Shown one piece after another: positions 30,959 to 40,749 of a stretch of 49,810 nt of DNA. Numbering within the stretch: position 1 is the first letter of the stretch; each line of letters begins with the position of its first letter. The notes below the pieces were generated by a model that saw only the letters and a list, made by a program, of their open reading frames with translations, ran no database searches and was not told where the DNA came from. Made by a program: the position numbers and the translations under genes. The DNA comes from Kofleriaceae bacterium (GTDB lineage: Bacteria > Myxococcota_A > Polyangia > Haliangiales > Haliangiaceae): assembly GCA_046597055.1 (NCBI GenBank), contig JBKJLC010000292.1:1-49810 (forward strand), given 5' to 3'.

Positions 30959-30984
30959 GTAACCTGCGGACCTTGATGAGCGTC
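30959..30984 (+). promoter_or_regulatory. Putative ECF sigma promoter (copy 1)
   Basis: GTAACC-N16-CGTC, 9 nt before GTG 30994. Confidence 0.65.
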
Positions 30985-30993
30985 CAAGGCGGC

Positions 30994-32400
30994 GTGAGCA
31001 CGATCGTGATTGCCGGGGCAACCGGCTTCGTGGGGAACGCGCTGGCGCAGCGGCTGGCCGGTCGCACCCAGGACCCGCTCGAGGTGGTCGGGCTCACCCG
31101 CGGCCGCCGCGAGGCGGCGGGGGCGTGGTCCCGGCTGGTCACGTGTGACCTGTTCTCGCTCTCCGACGTGCAGGCCGCCCTGAAGGGCGCGCGGTTTGCG
31201 GTGTACCTGGTCCACTCGATGCTGCCGTCGGCGCGGCTGGTCCAGGGCAACTTCGCCGACCTCGATCTCATCTGCGCCGACAACTTCGGGCGCGCGGCCA
31301 AGGCGGCCGGGGTCGAGCAGATCGTGTACCTCGGCGGGCTCATTCCCGACACCGAGCCGCTGTCGAGCCACCTGGCCAGCCGGCTCGAGGTCGAGGCCGC
31401 GCTCGGCTCGCACGGCGTGCCGGTGACGACCTTGCGCGCCGGCATCGTGATCGGCCCGGGCGGCTCGTCGTTCGAGATGCTGGTGCGGCTGGTGCGCCGG
31501 CTGCCGGCGATGATCACGCCGCGCTGGTGCGATCACAGCTGCCAGCCGATCGACCTGGGCACGGTCACCGCGCTCATCGACCACGTGGTCGGTCGGGTCG
31601 AGTGTTACCACCAGACCTACGATATCGGCGGGCCCGATATCCTGAGCTACCGCGACATGCTGCTCACGGTGGGCGCGCTGCTCGGCACCCCGCGGCGCGT
31701 CTACCGGTTCCCGCTGTTCACGCCGCGGCTGTCGCGGCTGTGGGTGTCGCTCATCACCGGCGCGCCGCGCGCGCTGGTCGCGCCGCTGATCGACAGCCTG
31801 CAGCACGACATGGTGTGCCGCGATCGTCGGCTGCAGGCCGCGGCCGACCTGCCCGGCATGAAGTTCCGCGACGCGGCGGCGATCTCGCTGGGCGCGGCCG
31901 CGGCCACGCCCGGCACCGCGCTGCCGGTGGTCTACAAGGCGGCGCCGCGGGTGACCCCGACCGGCGTGCGCTCGGTGCAGCGGATCGAGCTGCCAGGCGG
32001 CCGCGACGCCGAGTGGGCTGCCCACGAGTACATGCGCTGGCTGCCGCGTGGCGCCTGGCCGTTCCTGCGGGTCGACGTCGACAACCAGCGGACCTGCTCG
32101 TTCTACCTGAAGGGATCGCGGCGGCCGCTGCTGGTGCTGACGTTCGCGGCCGAGCGCAGCGCGTCGGACCGACAGCTGTTCTACGTGACCGGCGGCGCGC
32201 TCACCCGCGCCAGCAAGCGCGGTCGACTCGAGCTGCGGGTCACGCCCGACGGCGAGCACCTGCTCACCGCGATCCACGAGTTCGTGCCGCGGCTGCCGTG
32301 GTGGCTGTACCGAGTCACCCAGGCCCTCGTGCACCGCTGGGTCATGGCGCGGTTCGGCACTCACCTCGGCCGCCAGCGCGCGCTGCCCGCTGCGGCGTGA
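30994..32400 (+). CDS. Atypical SDR / NAD(P)H-binding protein (YbjT-like) with C-terminal DUF2867-like domain
   Basis: [11 protein letters not shown]ossmann motif, [31 protein letters not shown]. Start set at GTG 30994 from the promoter position (ORF open from 30973). Confidence 0.85.
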
Positions 32401-32968
32401 GCTGGGCGCCGAGCGCGTCGTCGCCGGCGAGCACGGCATCCTCCGCGTCCGGGGTCCGGGCCAGCCGCAGCTGCTGCCGCGCCCGGTGCGCGCGGATCTT
32501 CACGTTCGCGACGGTGATGCCGAGGCGGCTCGCGGTCTCGGCCTCGCTCAGCTCGGCGCGCAACATCATCACCTCGCGATACTTCGGCGCCAGCTGGTCG
32601 AGCACGCGCTGGGCCGCGAGCGCGAGCTCGCGATCGGCGACCATCGTCTCGGGCGAGCGGGCCGGGTCGGGCACCTCGCGATCGACCTCGTCGGCGGTCG
32701 GCGCCAGGTGCTCGCGCGAGCGCTTGCCACGTCGGAGATGATCGAGCGCGGTGGTCGCCGCGATCCGGTAGAGCCAGGTCCGGTAGCGCGCGTCGCCGCG
32801 GAACGAGTCGCGGTGGCGGTAGGCCAGCAGCATCGCGTCCTGGGCGACGTCGTCGGCGGCCTCGGCGCTGTGGACGATGCGGCGGGCGACCGAGTACACG
32901 AAGTTGCGCTCGTCGCGGCCGAACTTCATCTCGTCACGGGGCCGCGCGGTCTCGGTGAGGGTCGTCAT
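32342..32968 (-). CDS. ECF RNA polymerase sigma factor
   Basis: [25 protein letters not shown] (region 2); [23 protein letters not shown] (region 4); starts 1 nt after the folE stop with a GGAGG RBS. Confidence 0.9.
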
Positions 32969-32969
32969 G

Positions 32970-33623
32970 TCACCGACCTCCCGGCGCGCGCAGCAGGGCC
33001 ATGACCTCGGCGCGGGCCGCGGCATCGGTCGCGAACACGCCGCGGTGCGCGACCGTGGTCATGGTGGCGCCCTGCTTGGCGACGCCCCGCATCTTCATGC
33101 ACATGTGCTCGGACTCGATCACCACCGAGACCGCGCGCGGCTCGAGGTGCGTCATCATCGCGTCGGCGAGCTGCCGGGTCAGACGCTCCTGGACCTGCAG
33201 CCGGCGGGCGAAGGTCTCGACCGCGCGCGCGATCTTCGACAACCCGACCACGCGGCCCTCGGCCGGGAGATACCCGACGTGCGCCACGCCGGAGAACGGC
33301 AGCATGTGGTGCTCGCACATGCTGTGCATCTCGATGCCGCGCACCACCACCAGCTCGTCGCCACCCTCGTGGAAGATGGTGCGGAGGTGCTCGCCGGGGT
33401 CCTCGCCGAGCCCGGCGGTGAGGTCGCGGTACGAGCGCGCCACCCGCGCCGGGGTGTCGGCAAGGCCCTCGCGATCCGGGTCCTCGCCGATCGCGATCAG
33501 GATCTCGCGCACCGCTCGGGCGATGCGCGGCAGGTCGATGACCCGCGGCGAACGCGCCCCGCCGACAGCATCGCGACGGGTTACCAGCCGCTGCGTGGAC
33601 GAATTAACATCCAAGTCGTTCAT
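32970..33623 (-). CDS. folE: GTP cyclohydrolase I
   Basis: [55 protein letters not shown] box 7 nt upstream of ATG 33623. Confidence 0.96.
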
Positions 33624-33636
33624 AACGTCCACCATA
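33596..33636 (-). promoter_or_regulatory. Putative operator array plus -10 box at the folE start
   Basis: Minus strand TGGACGTTA-TGAACGACT-TGGATGTTA (9-bp period) followed by an inverted copy ATTCGTCCA; adjacent -10 TATGGT at 33631-33636. Confidence 0.5.
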
Positions 33637-33749
33637 CGCCGCAAAACGGTCAGCGCTAGCGAAAAACGTTCGAACTACACAACCGGTTGAAACTTTATGG
33701 GTATGTTGCCGTGTCTTCGACCGGGCCCCAGGTACCCCGCCTCCTATTT

Positions 33750-33775
33750 GTAACCTGGCTGACTTCGAAGGCGTC
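33750..33775 (+). promoter_or_regulatory. Putative ECF sigma promoter (copy 2)
   Basis: GTAACC-N16-CGTC, 10 nt before ATG 33786. Confidence 0.65.
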
Positions 33776-33785
33776 TCCTCGTCCT

Positions 33786-34631
33786 ATGCGTCTGCTGTCC
33801 CCCAAAGAGCTCGCCGAGGCGCTCGGTGTGAGCGAGTCGTCGCTCAAGCGGTGGGTGGACGCGGGCAAGATCGCGGCGGCACGCACCGAGGGAGGTCACC
33901 GCCGGATCGCGCTGCCCGAGGCGGTCCGGTTCATCCGCGAGACCGGTGCGCCGCTGGCCCGGCCCGAGCTCCTGGGCATGCCCGAGGTCGCGGTCGCGCA
34001 GGCCCGGGTCGCCAGTGGTGATGCCCTGCTCGAGGCGCTGCTCGCCGGCGACGCGGTGGCCGCGCGCGGCTGGCTGCTGGCGCGCTACCTGGCGGGTGAC
34101 TCGGTCGCCGCGCTGTGCGACGGGCCGATCCGCGAGGCGATGCACCGCATCGGCCAGCTGTGGCAGCACGACAGCGAGGGCATCTTCGTCGAGCACCGGG
34201 CCACCGACACCTGCCTGTACGCGCTCATGCACCTGCGGACCTCGTTCGACCCGAGCGGCGAGGCGCCGGTCGCGATCGGCGCGGCGCCCGAGGACGATCC
34301 ATACCTGCTGCCGTCGCTGAGCGCGGCCACCGTGATCGCCGCCGGCGGCATGCGCGCGGTCAACCTCGGCCCCGACACGCCGACCAGCGCGCTCCACCAC
34401 GCGGTCATCCGCCACGCGCCACGGCTGGTCTGGCTGAGCGTGAGCGCCGCGCTCGAGCCGGTGCAAGCTCGCCAGCTCGGGCGCTGGCTCACCTCGCTAC
34501 CGCCGTCGGTGATCGCGGTGGTGGGGGGACGCGAGAGCGCGTCCGTTGCCGACGCGCAGCCGGGCATCCGGCGGGTCGAGACGATGACCGAGCTCGCCGC
34601 GATCGTGGCCGACATCGTCTCCGGCCGCTGA
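33786..34631 (+). CDS. MerR/BldC-type HTH regulator with CarH/LitR-like B12-binding fold
   Basis: LLSPKELAEALGVSESSLKRW..RTEGGHRRI HTH; IGQLW-x9-EH helical-bundle motif; Rossmann NLGPDTP, LVWLS, VVGG; canonical E/DxHxxG replaced by DPYLLP. Confidence 0.82.
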   Translation: MRLLSPKELAEALGVSESSLKRWVDAGKIAAARTEGGHRRIALPEAVRFIRETGAPLARPELLGMPEVAVAQARVASGDALLEALLAGDAVAARGWLLARYLAGDSVAALCDGPIREAMHRIGQLWQHDSEGIFVEHRATDTCLYALMHLRTSFDPSGEAPVAIGAAPEDDPYLLPSLSAATVIAAGGMRAVNLGPDTPTSALHHAVIRHAPRLVWLSVSAALEPVQARQLGRWLTSLPPSVIAVVGGRESASVADAQPGIRRVETMTELAAIVADIVSGR

Positions 34632-34635
34632 CAAT

Positions 34636-34661
34636 GTAACCTCGGCGCCGCGACCGGCCTC
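34636..34661 (+). promoter_or_regulatory. Putative ECF sigma promoter (copy 3)
   Basis: GTAACC-N16-CCTC, 9 nt before ATG 34671. Confidence 0.6.
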
Positions 34662-34670
34662 GAAGGCGCC

Positions 34671-35201
34671 ATGAACCGAACCTGTCTGACGCGCCTCCCC
34701 ATCCTGCTCGGCCTCGCCCTCGCGGCATGCGGCTCGAGCGCACCGGCCGCCACCGAGCCGGGCATGGCATCCACCGAGCCCGCGGCCGCCGAGCCCACCG
34801 CCAACATCATTCAGACCGCGGTCGCGGCTGGCTCCTTCAAGACCCTGGTCACCGCGGTCGAGGCCGCCGGCCTGGTCGCGACCCTCGAGGGCCCGGGCCC
34901 GTTCACGGTGTTCGCCCCGACCGACGAGGCGTTCGCCAAGCTGCCGCCGGGCACGCTCGAGGCGCTGCTCGCCGACAAGGCCAAGCTGACCGCGGTCCTC
35001 ACCTATCACGTGGTCGCCGGCGACGTGAGCTCGAGCGCCGTCGCCGGGATGAAGTCGGCCACCACGGTCCAGGGCAGCGCGGTCGCGATCGACGCCAGCG
35101 CGGGCGTCAAGATCAACGACGCGACCGTGATCAAGGCCGACATCAAGGCGACCAACGGCGTGATCCACGTGATCGACACCGTGCTGCTGCCCCCGTCGTA
35201 A
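34671..35201 (+). CDS. Fasciclin (FAS1) domain lipoprotein
   Basis: LAAC lipobox; [33 protein letters not shown]. Confidence 0.95.
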
Positions 35202-35223
35202 CCGGACTGGGGGCGCCGACATC
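35198..35223 (+). promoter_or_regulatory. Putative ECF sigma promoter (copy 4)
   Basis: GTAACC-N16-CATC, 8 nt before ATG 35232; overlaps the fasciclin stop codon, so it could be partly coincidental. Confidence 0.5.
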
Positions 35224-35231
35224 TCAGGGTC

Positions 35232-35639
35232 ATGAACGGTGTGCTCCCAGACGGCAAGACGGTCGAGGTGTTCTACGACGGTGACTGTCCGCTGTGCATG
35301 CGCGAGATACGCATGCTCGGACGCCTCGACCGCAAGGCGCGCATCGAGTTCACCAACATCGCGGCGGCCGACTTCGACGCCGCCGCCCTCGGCACCACCT
35401 ATCCGGCCCTGATGGAGCGCATCCGCGGGCGGCTCGCCGACGGCACCTGGATCGAGGGCGTCGAGGTGTTCCGGCGCCTGTACGCCGCGGTCGGCTTCGG
35501 CTGGCTGGTCGCGGTGACCCGCGTGCCTGGCCTCTCGCACTTGCTGACGCTGGGCTACCGGGTCTTCGCGAAGAACCGACTGAGGCTCACCGGCCGGTGC
35601 GCGCCCGACGGGGCGTGTGCCGTGCCGCGCGCGTCGTAG
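35232..35639 (+). CDS. DCC1-like thiol-disulfide oxidoreductase (DUF393)
   Basis: [10 protein letters not shown] motif; [17 protein letters not shown]. Confidence 0.9.
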
Positions 35640-36924: not shown

Positions 36925-38502
36925 ATGGGGGCGACGCAGGAGGACGACCGCTTCGAGCTCCGTGGTGAGCTCGGCGCCGGCTCGTCGGGCACCGTCTACC
37001 GCGTGCTCGATCGCCGCCGCGGTCACGAGGTCGCGCTCAAGGTCCTGCGTCGCTTCGGCGGCGCTGACCTCTACCGGTTCAAGCGCGAGTTTCGCGCGCT
37101 GGCCGGCCTGGCCCACCCCAACCTCGCGACCCTGCACGAGCTCTACGCGGTCGGCGAGGAGTGGATGTACACGATGGAGCTGGTCGATGGGGACCCGTTC
37201 GATCGGTGGGTCCGGCCGGGCGGGTCGGTGGCGGCGATCGACGCCGACGAGCTCGCGGGCACCACCACGCTGGTGCGGCGCAGCGGCCCCGGCGCCGCGG
37301 TCGACCTGGGCCGGCTGCGGGCCGGGCTGATCCAGCTCGCCGACGGGCTGACCGCGCTGCACTCGGTCCACAAGATCCACCGCGATCTCAAGCCGAGCAA
37401 CGTCCTCTGCGATCGGGCCGGGCGCGTCGTGATCCTGGACTTCGGCCTGGTGATCGACGCGGTGCGCGCCGACCGGACCCACGACGGGCGGCCGATCGGG
37501 ACGGTCGCGTACATGTCGCCCGAGCAGGCCGCCGCCGTGGCGCTGACCGCCGCCAGCGACTGGTACGCGGTCGGGGTCATGCTGTACGAGGCGCTCACCG
37601 GGATCCGGCCGTTCCGCGGCGCCGCCCACGACGTGCTCCTGCGCAAGCAGCTCGAGGACCCGCCGCTGCCGTCGGTGATCGCGAGCGGGGTGCCCGCTGA
37701 TCTCGAGCAGCTGTGCGGCGCGCTGCTCGCCCGCGATCCGCTCCGACGCCCGGTCGGCGCCGAGGTGCTGGCGGCGCTCGGCGCCACCCCCTCGTCCGCG
37801 TCGGTGGCGCTGGCGGTGCGTCCGGCGGCGCGGCCGGCAGACCCGGCCGCGCTGGCCGCGCTGCTCCAGGCGCTGGAGGACAGCCGCGAGCACTTCGTCG
37901 CGGTGGCGGTGCTCGGTCGGGCCGGCGCTGGCAAGTCGGCGCTGCTCGAGCAGTTCGCCGAGGAGGCCGAGCTCCGGCAGCACGCCTGCATCCTCTACGC
38001 GCGCAGCGACGGCCGCGAGCAGTCCATGTTCCCGGCCCTCGACCAGCTCATCGACCAGCTGGGCGGGGTCCTGCTGGCGCTGCCGCCCGAGGCGATGGCG
38101 GCGGTCGCGCCGCTGGCGACCCCGGTGGCGCGGGTGTTCCCGACCCTGCGCCGGGTGCCGGCGTTGCGGGCCCCGGCCCTGCCGAGCGCGACGCCTCCGG
38201 ATCCGGCGCGCGTGCTCGAGCGCGCGCTGGTGAGCTTTCGCTCGGTGATCGATCACCTCGCGGGAGAGCGGCCGCTGGCCATGTGCGTGGATGGCGCCGA
38301 GCACACTACCGTCGACGGCGCCGCCACGTACAGCCGGCTGTTCACCGTGACGGAGGCCATGCCGCGCGCGATGTTCGTGCTCAGCCACCGCAGCGAGCCC
38401 GACCAGGGCGGCCGCGCGCTCGCCGCGCTGCGCCGGTGGGCCGACGACCAGGGCGGCGACGTGCGCTGGATCGATCTCGACGCGCCCCCTAACACCCTCT
38501 GA
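36925..38502 (+). CDS. Cytoplasmic Ser/Thr kinase with short C-terminal P-loop (AAA_16-like) domain, paralog 1
   Basis: GAGSSG, ALK, HRDLKPSN, DFG, YMSPE; Walker A GRAGAGKS. Confidence 0.9.
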   Translation: MGATQEDDRFELRGELGAGSSGTVYRVLDRRRGHEVALKVLRRFGGADLYRFKREFRALAGLAHPNLATLHELYAVGEEWMYTMELVDGDPFDRWVRPGGSVAAIDADELAGTTTLVRRSGPGAAVDLGRLRAGLIQLADGLTALHSVHKIHRDLKPSNVLCDRAGRVVILDFGLVIDAVRADRTHDGRPIGTVAYMSPEQAAAVALTAASDWYAVGVMLYEALTGIRPFRGAAHDVLLRKQLEDPPLPSVIASGVPADLEQLCGALLARDPLRRPVGAEVLAALGATPSSASVALAVRPAARPADPAALAALLQALEDSREHFVAVAVLGRAGAGKSALLEQFAEEAELRQHACILYARSDGREQSMFPALDQLIDQLGGVLLALPPEAMAAVAPLATPVARVFPTLRRVPALRAPALPSATPPDPARVLERALVSFRSVIDHLAGERPLAMCVDGAEHTTVDGAATYSRLFTVTEAMPRAMFVLSHRSEPDQGGRALAALRRWADDQGGDVRWIDLDAPPNTL

Positions 38503-39222: not shown

Positions 39223-40749
39223 ATGGTTCCGGACGCCGTGGAAAACGAGCGCTTCGAGCTCCGCGGCGAGCTGGGCATCGGCGGCGGGGGCGCGGTCTAT
39301 CGCGTCTTCGATCGCGAGCGCGGCATCGAGGTGGCCCTCAAGATGCTGCGCCGGGTCGGCGGGCCCGATCTCTATCGCTTCAAGCGCGAGTTCCGCGCGC
39401 TGGCCGGGCTGGCCCATCCCCACCTGGCCACACTGCACGAGCTGTACGTGGTCGGCAGCGAGTGGATGTACACGATGGAGCTGGTCGAGGGCGTGCCCTT
39501 CGATCAATGGGTGCGCACGCCGGGCGACGGCCCGGAGCCGCCCGGCGTGCTCGACACCGCCCGGCTCCGCGACGCGCTGTACCAGCTCGCCGACGGCCTC
39601 ACCGCGCTGCACGGGCTCGGCAAGCTCCACCGCGATCTGAAGCCGTCGAACGTGCTGTGCGAGCCGAGCGGCCGGCTGGTGATCCTCGACTTCGGGCTGA
39701 TCGTCGAGCCGGGCTCGGTCGAGCACACCCACGAGCACAGCGCGGTCGGCACGCTCGCGTACATGTCACCCGAGCAGGCCGCCGACGTCCCGCTGACCCC
39801 GGCCAGCGACTGGTACGCGGTCGGCGTCATGTTGTACGAGGCGCTGACCGGCGTCCGCCCGTTCCGCGGCGCGACCCACGACGTGCTCCTGCGCAAGCAG
39901 CGCGAAGACGCGACCCCGCCCTCGGTGGTGGCGCCGGGTGTCCCGCGCGATCTCGCGGCGCTATGTGCCCGCCTGCTCCATCGCGATCCGACCCGCCGGC
40001 CCGACGGACCGGCGGTCCTCGCCGCGCTGGGCCAGACCGAGTCACTGGCGACGATCACGACCCTGAGCCGGGTGCACGCACCTCCCGCGCCGGCGGCGCC
40101 GGCGGCGATGGACGCGCTGCGCCAGGCGCTCGCGGCCAGCCGCGACCACTTCGTGCTGGCGGTCGTGCACGGCGACGCGGGCAGCGGCAAGACCGCCCTG
40201 CTCGACGCGTTCCTCGACGAGGCGCGGGTCGAGCACGACGCGCTGACCCTGGCCGGTGCCGACGATCCGCGCGAGCAGATCCCGCTGTCGAGCATCGACC
40301 AGGCGCTCGATCAGCTCAGCTCGTACTTCATGGCGCTGCCAAAAGCGGGGGCGGCGGCGCTGCTGGCCGATGCGGCCCCGCTGGCGCGTATGTTCCCGGC
40401 CCTGCGCCGGGTGCCCGCGCTGCAGGTGCCGGTGCTCCCGCAAACCAGCGTGCTCGGGCCGGACGAGCTCCGCCGCCGCGCCTTCGGCGCGCTGCGCACG
40501 ATCCTGGCTCGGCTCGGCCTCACCCGCCCGGTCGTGCTCGCGTTCGACAACAACGGGCACGTCGCCGGCGCCGACGCGCGGATCTTCAGCGAGAGCTTCG
40601 TCGGCCCCGACATGCCGCACGCGCTGGTGATCGCCAGCTACCACTCCGACCTCCTGGCGACCAGCCAGTCGCTCGCCGACCTGCGCCGCTGGGCCGACCA
40701 GATGCAGGGCGACCTGCGCTTCGTCGGGCTCGACCCGCCCGACGCCTGA
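39223..40749 (+). CDS. Cytoplasmic Ser/Thr kinase with short C-terminal P-loop domain, paralog 2
   Basis: GIGGGG, HRDLKPSN, DFG, YMSPE; Walker A GDAGSGKT; long near-identical stretches with paralog 1. Confidence 0.9.
   Translation: MVPDAVENERFELRGELGIGGGGAVYRVFDRERGIEVALKMLRRVGGPDLYRFKREFRALAGLAHPHLATLHELYVVGSEWMYTMELVEGVPFDQWVRTPGDGPEPPGVLDTARLRDALYQLADGLTALHGLGKLHRDLKPSNVLCEPSGRLVILDFGLIVEPGSVEHTHEHSAVGTLAYMSPEQAADVPLTPASDWYAVGVMLYEALTGVRPFRGATHDVLLRKQREDATPPSVVAPGVPRDLAALCARLLHRDPTRRPDGPAVLAALGQTESLATITTLSRVHAPPAPAAPAAMDALRQALAASRDHFVLAVVHGDAGSGKTALLDAFLDEARVEHDALTLAGADDPREQIPLSSIDQALDQLSSYFMALPKAGAAALLADAAPLARMFPALRRVPALQVPVLPQTSVLGPDELRRRAFGALRTILARLGLTRPVVLAFDNNGHVAGADARIFSESFVGPDMPHALVIASYHSDLLATSQSLADLRRWADQMQGDLRFVGLDPPDA

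Follow-up and report, generated by a model that had tools for sequence, protein, structure and literature searches.

We analysed a 49,810-nucleotide (nt) stretch of DNA from a Kofleriaceae bacterium (contig JBKJLC010000292.1 of assembly GCA_046597055.1), hereafter the window, and focused on a cluster of six genes that pairs a CarH-like regulator with an extracytoplasmic function (ECF) sigma factor. Pfam and NCBIfam scans of the window proteins confirmed the six genes (Table 1), together with the tight coupling of folE to the sigma gene that a first-pass annotation had described. The cluster is flanked by typA on one side and by a DUF6748 gene on the other. At its 3' end the sigma gene runs head-on into the gene for a short-chain dehydrogenase/reductase (SDR), with a 59-nt overlap that leaves no space for an anti-sigma gene, in keeping with the earlier remark that the cluster has none. 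In other genomes the regulator has DUF2867-bearing neighbours, to which the SDR is 41% identical over 249 amino acids; it is presumably YbjT-like. Translation of folE likely starts, leaderless, at ATG 33623.

Table 1. Genes and predicted regulatory elements of the cluster, in window coordinates.
Feature	Position	Strand	Basis and remarks
Predicted ECF promoter of the SDR gene, GTAACC-N16-CGTC	30959..30984	+	GTG 9 nt downstream
NAD(P)-binding SDR/epimerase	30994..32400	+	Pfam/NCBIfam; GTG start
ECF sigma factor (Sigma70_r2 + r4_2)	32342..32968	-	Pfam
folE, GTP cyclohydrolase I	32970..33623	-	Above NCBIfam cut-off; stop TGA 1 nt before sigma ATG
Predicted sigma70-type promoter with overlaid predicted operator half-sites	33596..33672	-	Alignment with relatives
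Predicted ECF promoter of the regulator gene, GTAACC-N16-CGTC	33750..33775	+	ATG 10 nt downstream; feedback link
CarH/CtMerR-like regulator, 281 amino acids	33786..34631	+	HTH_17/MerR + B12-binding_2 + weak B12-binding
Predicted ECF promoter of the fasciclin gene, GTAACC-N16-CCTC	34636..34661	+	ATG 9 nt downstream
Fasciclin-domain protein	34671..35201	+	Pfam; predicted lipoprotein signal LAAC read from sequence
Predicted ECF promoter of the DCC gene, GTAACC-N16-CATC	35198..35223	+	ATG 8 nt downstream; -35 includes the fasciclin TAA stop
DCC1-like thiol-disulfide oxidoreductase	35232..35639	+	Pfam

The first-pass annotation had reported one ECF-type promoter motif before four of these genes, and the motif is indeed there: the window holds four copies of GTAAC-N17-C[ACG]TC, each 8-10 nt upstream of a start codon, compared to a mean of 0.28 and a maximum of 3 matches in 100 shuffles of the window. 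Because the pattern was derived from the four sites themselves (which are among 20 GTAACC-N16-CNTC matches genome-wide), we examined it in related loci, where independent support can be found. These were the best 80 of 557 regulator loci found, 1.05 Mb in total and many of them cut by contig ends; gene presence was counted with tblastn because a codon-trained gene caller missed 18 of the 80 regulators in loci of lower guanine-plus-cytosine content. The strict motif matched 48 times in these loci, 33 of them directly before the regulator gene, compared to 5-9 matches at seven wrong spacer lengths and 24 at a spacer one base shorter. When spacings of 16-18 were allowed, the motif preceded the regulator in 35 of the 46 loci with an adjacent sigma gene, in 2 of 26 without a sigma gene, in 0 of 2 with the sigma gene further away and in 1 of 6 at contig edges. 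In 12 of the 14 loci that have crtY, with which the carotenoid genes begin, the motif stood before it, against a background of 66 of 6540 genes (1.0%) in the window's own genome and 11 of 614 other neighbours in the loci. In 35 of 38 regulator promoters the -10 element lies 8-15 nt from the start codon, and the mRNAs would therefore be nearly leaderless.

The unit that recurs in relatives is smaller than the cluster. No locus of the 80 holds all six genes of the cluster, so the cluster as a whole is not conserved in this set, whereas the regulator and the sigma gene occur together in 48 and are adjacent and divergent in 46, the conserved pairing that characterises LitR-LitS-type systems. The gene folE lies between the two in 5 of the 48, its remaining nine copies being in loci without a sigma gene; by these counts the conserved core is the regulator plus the sigma factor, and folE is an occasional insert. 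Of 16 other genomes in the genus, 13 have a full-length regulator ortholog (E<1e-70), and in a phylum-wide sample 4 of 301 genomes, our own included, carry the regulator at E<=1e-30; a plasmid search returned no match for it. Besides the sigma gene (48 loci), its neighbours encode fasciclin (16), CrtI (16), CrtB (16), CrtE (15), CrtY (14), FolE (14), yfcH-like (13) and ybjT-like (12) proteins, TspO (10), DUF378 (10), DCC (4) and lipocalin (3), with an amine oxidase-DUF1365-CMAS operon nearby in 2 of the 80; yfcH, ybjT and ufaD here stand for Pfam patterns to which we attach what we take to be fitting names. In sigma-less loci, genes for folE, fasciclin, DUF378 and SDR proteins stand directly divergent from the regulator, without the ECF motif. 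The prevalence of photoprotection genes among these neighbours lends comparative support to the light or oxidative-stress theme suggested by the first-pass annotation.

The cluster sigma factor groups with the regulator-adjacent sigmas of relatives and with one paralog from its own genome (Shimodaira-Hasegawa-like approximate likelihood ratio test support of 99 in a quick tree), and it reaches no NCBIfam equivalog cut-off (best PRK11922, 107 versus 204 bits). No conserved anti-sigma gene was found 3' of the sigma gene in the 48 loci, where the next gene is variable (tspO in 8, a convergent gene in 22, a contig edge in 5 and others in 13); a cognate anti-sigma coupled downstream, as in CarQ-CarR-type systems, is not conserved at this position. 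The eight tspO genes (L072, L080, L082, L092-L095 and L100) are directly 3' of the sigma gene on the same strand, and at L084, which has no sigma gene, tspO is directly divergent from the regulator. The paralog (G000:C60:39476-40006, locus L145; labels give genome and contig, G000 being the window's genome) is an orphan, 40% identical to the cluster sigma and divergent from a response regulator gene; upstream of it are TAGACA/TGGACA-like sites, as well as a GTAACC that has no matching -10. At G032:C319:8457-9425, a related sigma gene is divergent from a different HTH_17 regulator (a weak match), which suggests that an HTH_17 regulator with a sigma of this type may be a reused module.

Could the cluster be a recent local assembly, its GTAAC promoters mainly read by another ECF sigma such as the C60 paralog, with no single circuit? 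The lack of the full six-gene set in all 80 loci agrees with this, as do the 26 ECF-like genes of the genome, the similar sigmas (E<=1e-25) that 25 of 39 relatives carry, frequently more than one per genome and also where the regulator is missing, and the occurrence of GTAACC as the -35 element of Caulobacter sigmaF promoters, given as GTAACC-N16-CGAA and hence with a different -10 (PMC3511200; papers are cited from extracts, by PMC identifier). However, the motif before the regulator follows the adjacent sigma gene (35/46 versus 2/26), and the crt operons that carry it in 12 of 14 cases lie beside a regulator-sigma pair. We regard this reading as very improbable.

The promoter of the folE-sigma operon is of another type. 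A plain sigma70 promoter and terminator scan found nothing; the predicted promoter has a -35 TAGCGC (33658-33653), a 16-nt spacer and, 7 nt before the folE ATG, a -10 TATGGT (33636-33631), the sigma70-type -10 beside a repeat array that had been noted before. The -35 aligns gap-free with TTGACA/TTGCGC of relatives, whose sigma-side consensus on the strand divergent from the regulator is TTGACA-N16-CATNAT-N7-ATGAACG (from the 18 best-scoring of 36 anchored promoters, chosen on TTG and two -10 letters). Predicted half-sites TG(A/G)ACG(A/T)T lie at 33645, 33624, 33615 and 33606 on the minus strand (-29, -8, +1 and +10 from the folE ATG) and at 33596 on the plus strand, and the array runs with a 9-nt period through the start codon; relatives have them at -29, -19 (inverted), -8, +1 and +10. 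The array over the start codon fixes the N-terminal Met-Asn-Asp/Glu of the first gene, whether sigma or folE. In 24 sigma-less loci of Planctomycetota and other groups, the half-site is enriched 5' of the regulator (46 seen versus 5.8 expected; 22 of the 24 have at least one), and it therefore follows the regulator and not the sigma. A matrix built from 18 relatives, the window left out, ranks the window's intergenic region first in the genome (70.7, followed by 69.5 and 63.9), which suggests one main direct target. These repeats are likely the operator that the regulator would bind, and their position over the promoter gives comparative support to the earlier proposal that it represses folE-sigma.

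The same arrangement could instead serve an activator or dual regulator, acting by MerR-like DNA twisting or, as proposed for Streptomyces LitR, in the light, with positive feedback as a result. MerR-type promoters have spacers of 19-20 nt, whereas the spacer here is 16 nt and shows no elongation; three half-sites cover the end of the -10, the start site and the first codons, which fits blocking, and many relatives have a consensus TTGACA. On the other side, the window -35 is weak, relatives carry an inverted half-site pair within the -35/-10 spacer, and activation of litS in the light is attributed to LitR in Streptomyces (PMC11519972). We therefore consider activation unlikely.

Six loci (L033, L038, L048, L049, L036 and L037) have a regulator without the ECF promoter; in its place stands a -10 of sigma70-like type, and the start codon coincides with an operator half-site. 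Read from these sites, their wiring would be direct autorepression, an alternative form of feedback. L038, L048 and L049 are also among loci in several genomes with an extra, degenerate regulator copy in which the Wx9EH and DPY motifs are lost and the divergent sigma gene and operator are kept. G007 has two regulator-sigma pairs in tandem (L026/L086, G007:C114).

The first-pass annotation took the regulator for an ordinary CarH/LitR protein, which it is not: its sequence keeps all B12 motifs save the cobalt-ligating His, and it is no canonical CarH. CarH and class I LitR proteins are defined in the extracts of PMC9304148 and PMC8156234 by Wx9EH and D/ExHx2G/P-x41-SxT/V-x22-27-GG, with His as the lower cobalt ligand. 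The regulator has the cap G123xxW126-x9-E136H137 followed by D171-P-Y173-x2-P176-x41-S218-V-S220-x26-G247G248, in which the D, P, S and GG residues and their spacing are kept and Tyr173 replaces the His. Its head is HTH_17-type (SLKRWVDAG), and neither the RxWERRY winged helix nor the 11-bp TnnACA direct-repeat operator of CarH is present; the NCBIfam CarH model scores 37 bits against a cut-off of 400. The structural model (predicted local distance difference test score of 94) matches the fold of CarH and of CtMerR from Chloracidobacterium thermophilum (PDB 8JBS/8JBT), the best solved-structure match at E 1.5e-47, with which it shares a helix-turn-helix, four-helix cap and Rossmann architecture and the GxxW, EH and GxxxP elements (PMC11796333). 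In CtMerR, His204 is described as ligating cobalt (PMC11796333), and HMMER aligns Tyr173 to it; of the four elements that SignatureFinder lists for CtMerR-type light-responsive cobalamin-binding domains, the regulator has three (G123xxW126, E136H137 and G195xxxP199), with D/GxxY where GxxH is expected. The Tyr is present in 76 of the 80 loci and, among close homologs, in 116 of 118; of 1086 representatives at E<=1e-30, the best 150 include 128 with Tyr. The other signature residues are also strictly conserved, with Wx9EH in 78 of the 80 loci, W in 117 of the 118 homologs, W126/E136/H137, S218 and G247G248 in 117-118 of them, and Cys143 in 114.

Because the cap and tail pocket is so strictly conserved and the genome (94% complete) has cobS, cbiX and cbiD, we favour a cobamide cofactor; a cobamide sensed directly is preferred, though not by strong odds, to another ligand, a redox signal or a partner protein. 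A separate observation concerns cobamide supply: at G000:C233:21439-30000 (L043), a distance of 113 nt separates a second, motif-bearing fasciclin gene from cobS downstream of it; an ABC uptake set comes next, then cbiX and cbiD, and read-through from the fasciclin promoter could link the response to cobamide supply. Binding of cobalamin without His has a precedent in Mmp10, which is no example of a Tyr cobalt ligand, as its lower axial residue is Leu322 and its Tyr115 holds an Fe-S cluster (PMC8828468).

The same cascade could operate with a regulator that is no B12 light sensor and responds to heme or porphyrin through the Tyr, to pterin made by FolE, to thiol redox at Cys143 or to a partner anti-repressor, an alternative we regard as possible though rather doubtful. 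TspO binds porphyrin, and tspO follows the sigma gene in 8 of 48 loci. The prevalence of the His-to-Tyr change and of Cys143 also agrees with such a sensor, as does the presence of a separate canonical CarH for the carotenoid operon of the genome. Further precedents are HaAI-2E (PMC11796333) and the class II and III LitR proteins, described as B12-independent (PMC9758184), and partner anti-repressors are exemplified by the short LOV protein of class II LitR and by CarS for CarA. However, the other adenosylcobalamin (AdoCbl) signature residues are near-invariant and not obviously needed for a non-corrinoid ligand, and folE occurs in just 14 of 80 loci. As for a partner, no LOV motif was found in the genome or the 80 loci, no BLUF domain in the 94%-complete genome and no conserved small gene beside the regulator. 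Class I photolyase PF00875 and the CarF-type family PF10520 were likewise not found in this genome, the latter in a search without a positive control.

The motif also marks genes elsewhere in the genome. At the divergent SDR / amine oxidase-DUF1365-CMAS-DUF1295-CMAS locus (C150) it stands before each of the two arms, and it also precedes the second fasciclin gene (C233), a lipocalin gene (C133, where the spacer has one base more) and the genome's sole DPRP/cryB gene (C247). With carotenoid operons carrying it in relatives, the self-contained four-gene regulon of the first-pass annotation does not stand. In the coding-strand 400 nt or less before the genes, the strict motif was absent from all 24 amine-oxidase (ufaD-like) genes of relatives, many of them distant paralogs or operon-internal genes, and from all six cryB genes; with a -35 relaxed post hoc, for which the background is 2.5% per 200 nt, it appeared at 3 of the 4 close orthologs of ufaD and at one of the three cryB genes from the same genus. 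An extended regulon is therefore plausible in this genome but labile, and most of the 100 genome-wide matches at 16-18 spacing probably arise by chance. Well-placed motifs were also seen before C76:3144-3329(-), encoding a 61-residue membrane protein divergent from SRPBCC/amine-oxidase/SDR genes, before C92:9584-10354(+), encoding a secreted protein, and before C233:91539-92057(+), encoding a protein of about 170 residues (all G000). The carotenoid operon of the genome, crtY-crtE-crtI-crtB (G000:C79:9925-17305, L146), ends in a gene for a canonical His-type CarH that is 24% identical to the cluster regulator, and TAGACA/TTGTCTAG repeats 5' of its crtY resemble the TnnACA operator; the genome therefore has two CarH-like systems.

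From the gene layout, the motifs and their conservation, and the His-to-Tyr change, we infer a single scheme of binding, repression, sigma specificity, feedback, signal and cofactor, and hold it with moderate confidence. At rest, the regulator would keep folE-sigma off by sitting on the TG(A/G)ACG(A/T)T repeats, which span the predicted sigma70 promoter and the opening codons of folE. The signal is probably light or photo-oxidative stress, because the neighbours across loci are photoprotection genes, and would likely be sensed by a cobamide held without the usual His. On release of the regulator, FolE and the sigma factor would be made from their operon, which lies back-to-back with the regulator gene, and the sigma, with no anti-sigma to hold it, is proposed to be active once made. 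It would then transcribe GTAAC-N16/17-C(A/G/C)TC promoters, mostly giving near-leaderless mRNAs, at the SDR, fasciclin, DCC and regulator genes, at the unlinked furan/cyclopropane-lipid, second fasciclin, lipocalin and cryB genes, and in relatives at carotenoid operons. New regulator made from the sigma-driven promoter would reset the switch by negative feedback, a loop already proposed in the first-pass annotation and favoured by the association of the regulator's motif with an adjacent sigma gene.

Several observations weigh against this scheme. The relatives are kin (Kofleriaceae) and not independent samples. On the promoter side, the window -35 TAGCGC is degenerate, the operator's lead in the genome ranking is thin (70.7 versus 69.5), and the ECF motif is rare before other neighbours (0/9 tspO, 1/17 yfcH-like, 1/9 ybjT-like and 3/14 fasciclin genes), with none at the ufaD-like and cryB genes of relatives under the strict pattern. 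The C60 paralog could read the same promoters as the cluster sigma, and the carotenoid operon in this genome is served by the separate CarH. On the sensor side, His177 of CarH is given as a proven key AdoCbl-binding residue, and HaAI-2E, with Arg at the His position, is reported to have bound only hydroxocobalamin, independently of light (PMC11796333), which makes AdoCbl photoreception by the Tyr regulator doubtful.

The closest parallel is Streptomyces, in which the CarH-family LitR, divergent from the ECF sigma LitS, controls the LitS promoter, and LitS transcribes carotenoid genes (PMC11519972). The cluster shares the divergent layout, the predicted control of the sigma's promoter and, in relatives, a putative carotenoid output, and its putative sigma-specific promoter likewise precedes photoprotection genes, namely 12 of 14 crtY operons in relatives and four genes of the cluster. 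The LitR of Streptomyces is described as AdoB12-based and as itself controlling both divergent promoters, and the LitS promoter is given as GCATCCR-N15-CVGAAD (PMC11519972). Here the regulator promoter is predicted to be sigma-driven, the sigma's promoter is GTAAC-N16/17-CNTC, and the regulator carries an HTH_17 head and a Tyr in place of the His. The parallel makes this a variation on a published design, with a sensor that has not been described. The first-pass annotation was right that the cluster differs from the Myxococcus CarQ/CarR and CarA/CarH systems, but the design has a precedent in the repressor-over-ECF arrangement of LitR-LitS (PMC11519972). With Myxococcus CarH/CarA and CarQ/CarR/CarS it has in common the phylum label, light protection as the output and, besides an ECF sigma, a repressor of the CarH kind placed over a sigmaA promoter, but the cluster lacks their RxWERRY helix, anti-sigma and 11-bp TnnACA repeats, has the 9-nt TG(A/G)ACG(A/T)T instead, and reverses their order, since its repressor would control the sigma whereas the Myxococcus sigma controls the anti-repressor (PMC9304148, PMC8156234).

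Outputs also overlap with Pseudomonas class II LitR (PplR/PmlR) and, in part, Rhodobacter RpoE-ChrR, for which folE, cryB, furan-fatty-acid and SDR genes are listed (PMC9758184, PMC6852236). The signal enters those systems by way of a short LOV protein or of the ChrR anti-sigma, and no counterpart of either was found here. Class III LitR is described as lacking the B12-type C-terminal domain, whereas the cluster regulator keeps the whole cobalamin-binding fold (PMC9758184, PMC6739363). The literature search, which covered few subscription journals and no supplements, returned no description of the Tyr branch, its operator or the cluster sigma, and the predicted operator and promoter code of the Tyr-regulator/sigma pair appear new. 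In the class III LitR-folE2-LitS system of Burkholderia multivorans (attributed to Sumi, 2018), the repressor reportedly controls a folE operon together with an ECF sigma, and the cfa and photolyase operons are driven by this sigma.

In the extracts of the surveyed literature, the characterised B12 photoreceptors hold cobalt by a His; a widespread family with a full pocket and a fixed Tyr would widen the chemistry by which B12 (or a tetrapyrrole) serves in sensing, and a new optogenetic module could come of it. With its predicted operator, single-promoter target, anti-sigma-free sigma and promoter consensus, the whole switch spans about 2.3 kb and could be rebuilt in a laboratory host. It would represent a second, non-Myxococcus wiring of photoprotection in Myxococcota, with a sigma layer present in one lineage and missing in others under the same repressor. 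More tentatively, we envisage a large CarH-like branch (Kofleriaceae, Planctomycetota, Acidobacteriota, Gemmatimonadota and others) that might bind a cobamide or tetrapyrrole via Tyr or with no lower ligand, with new photochemistry or redox or singlet-oxygen sensing, and that would act through its own 9-nt operator over a leaderless start; an anti-sigma-free ECF sigma may have been inserted in Kofleriaceae as a feedback amplifier, while sigma-less lineages would repress protective genes directly.

Two further observations concern neighbouring genes. Just 3' of the cluster, two similar Ser/Thr kinase genes (window 36925-38502(+), with an AAA_16 domain, and 39223-40749(+)) surround a gene for a HAD-like hydrolase, and a GTAACC without a matching -10 lies at window 36902. 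In 15 of the 80 loci (L055, L056, L061, L063-L065, L067-L070, L078, L091, L097, L099 and L114), a gene 3' of crtB encodes a membrane-like protein of about 190 residues that scores above the cut-off of no Pfam family; the copy in the window's own genome lies at G000:C79:14647-15225, and its recurrent position suggests that it is likely an unannotated carotenoid-pathway gene.

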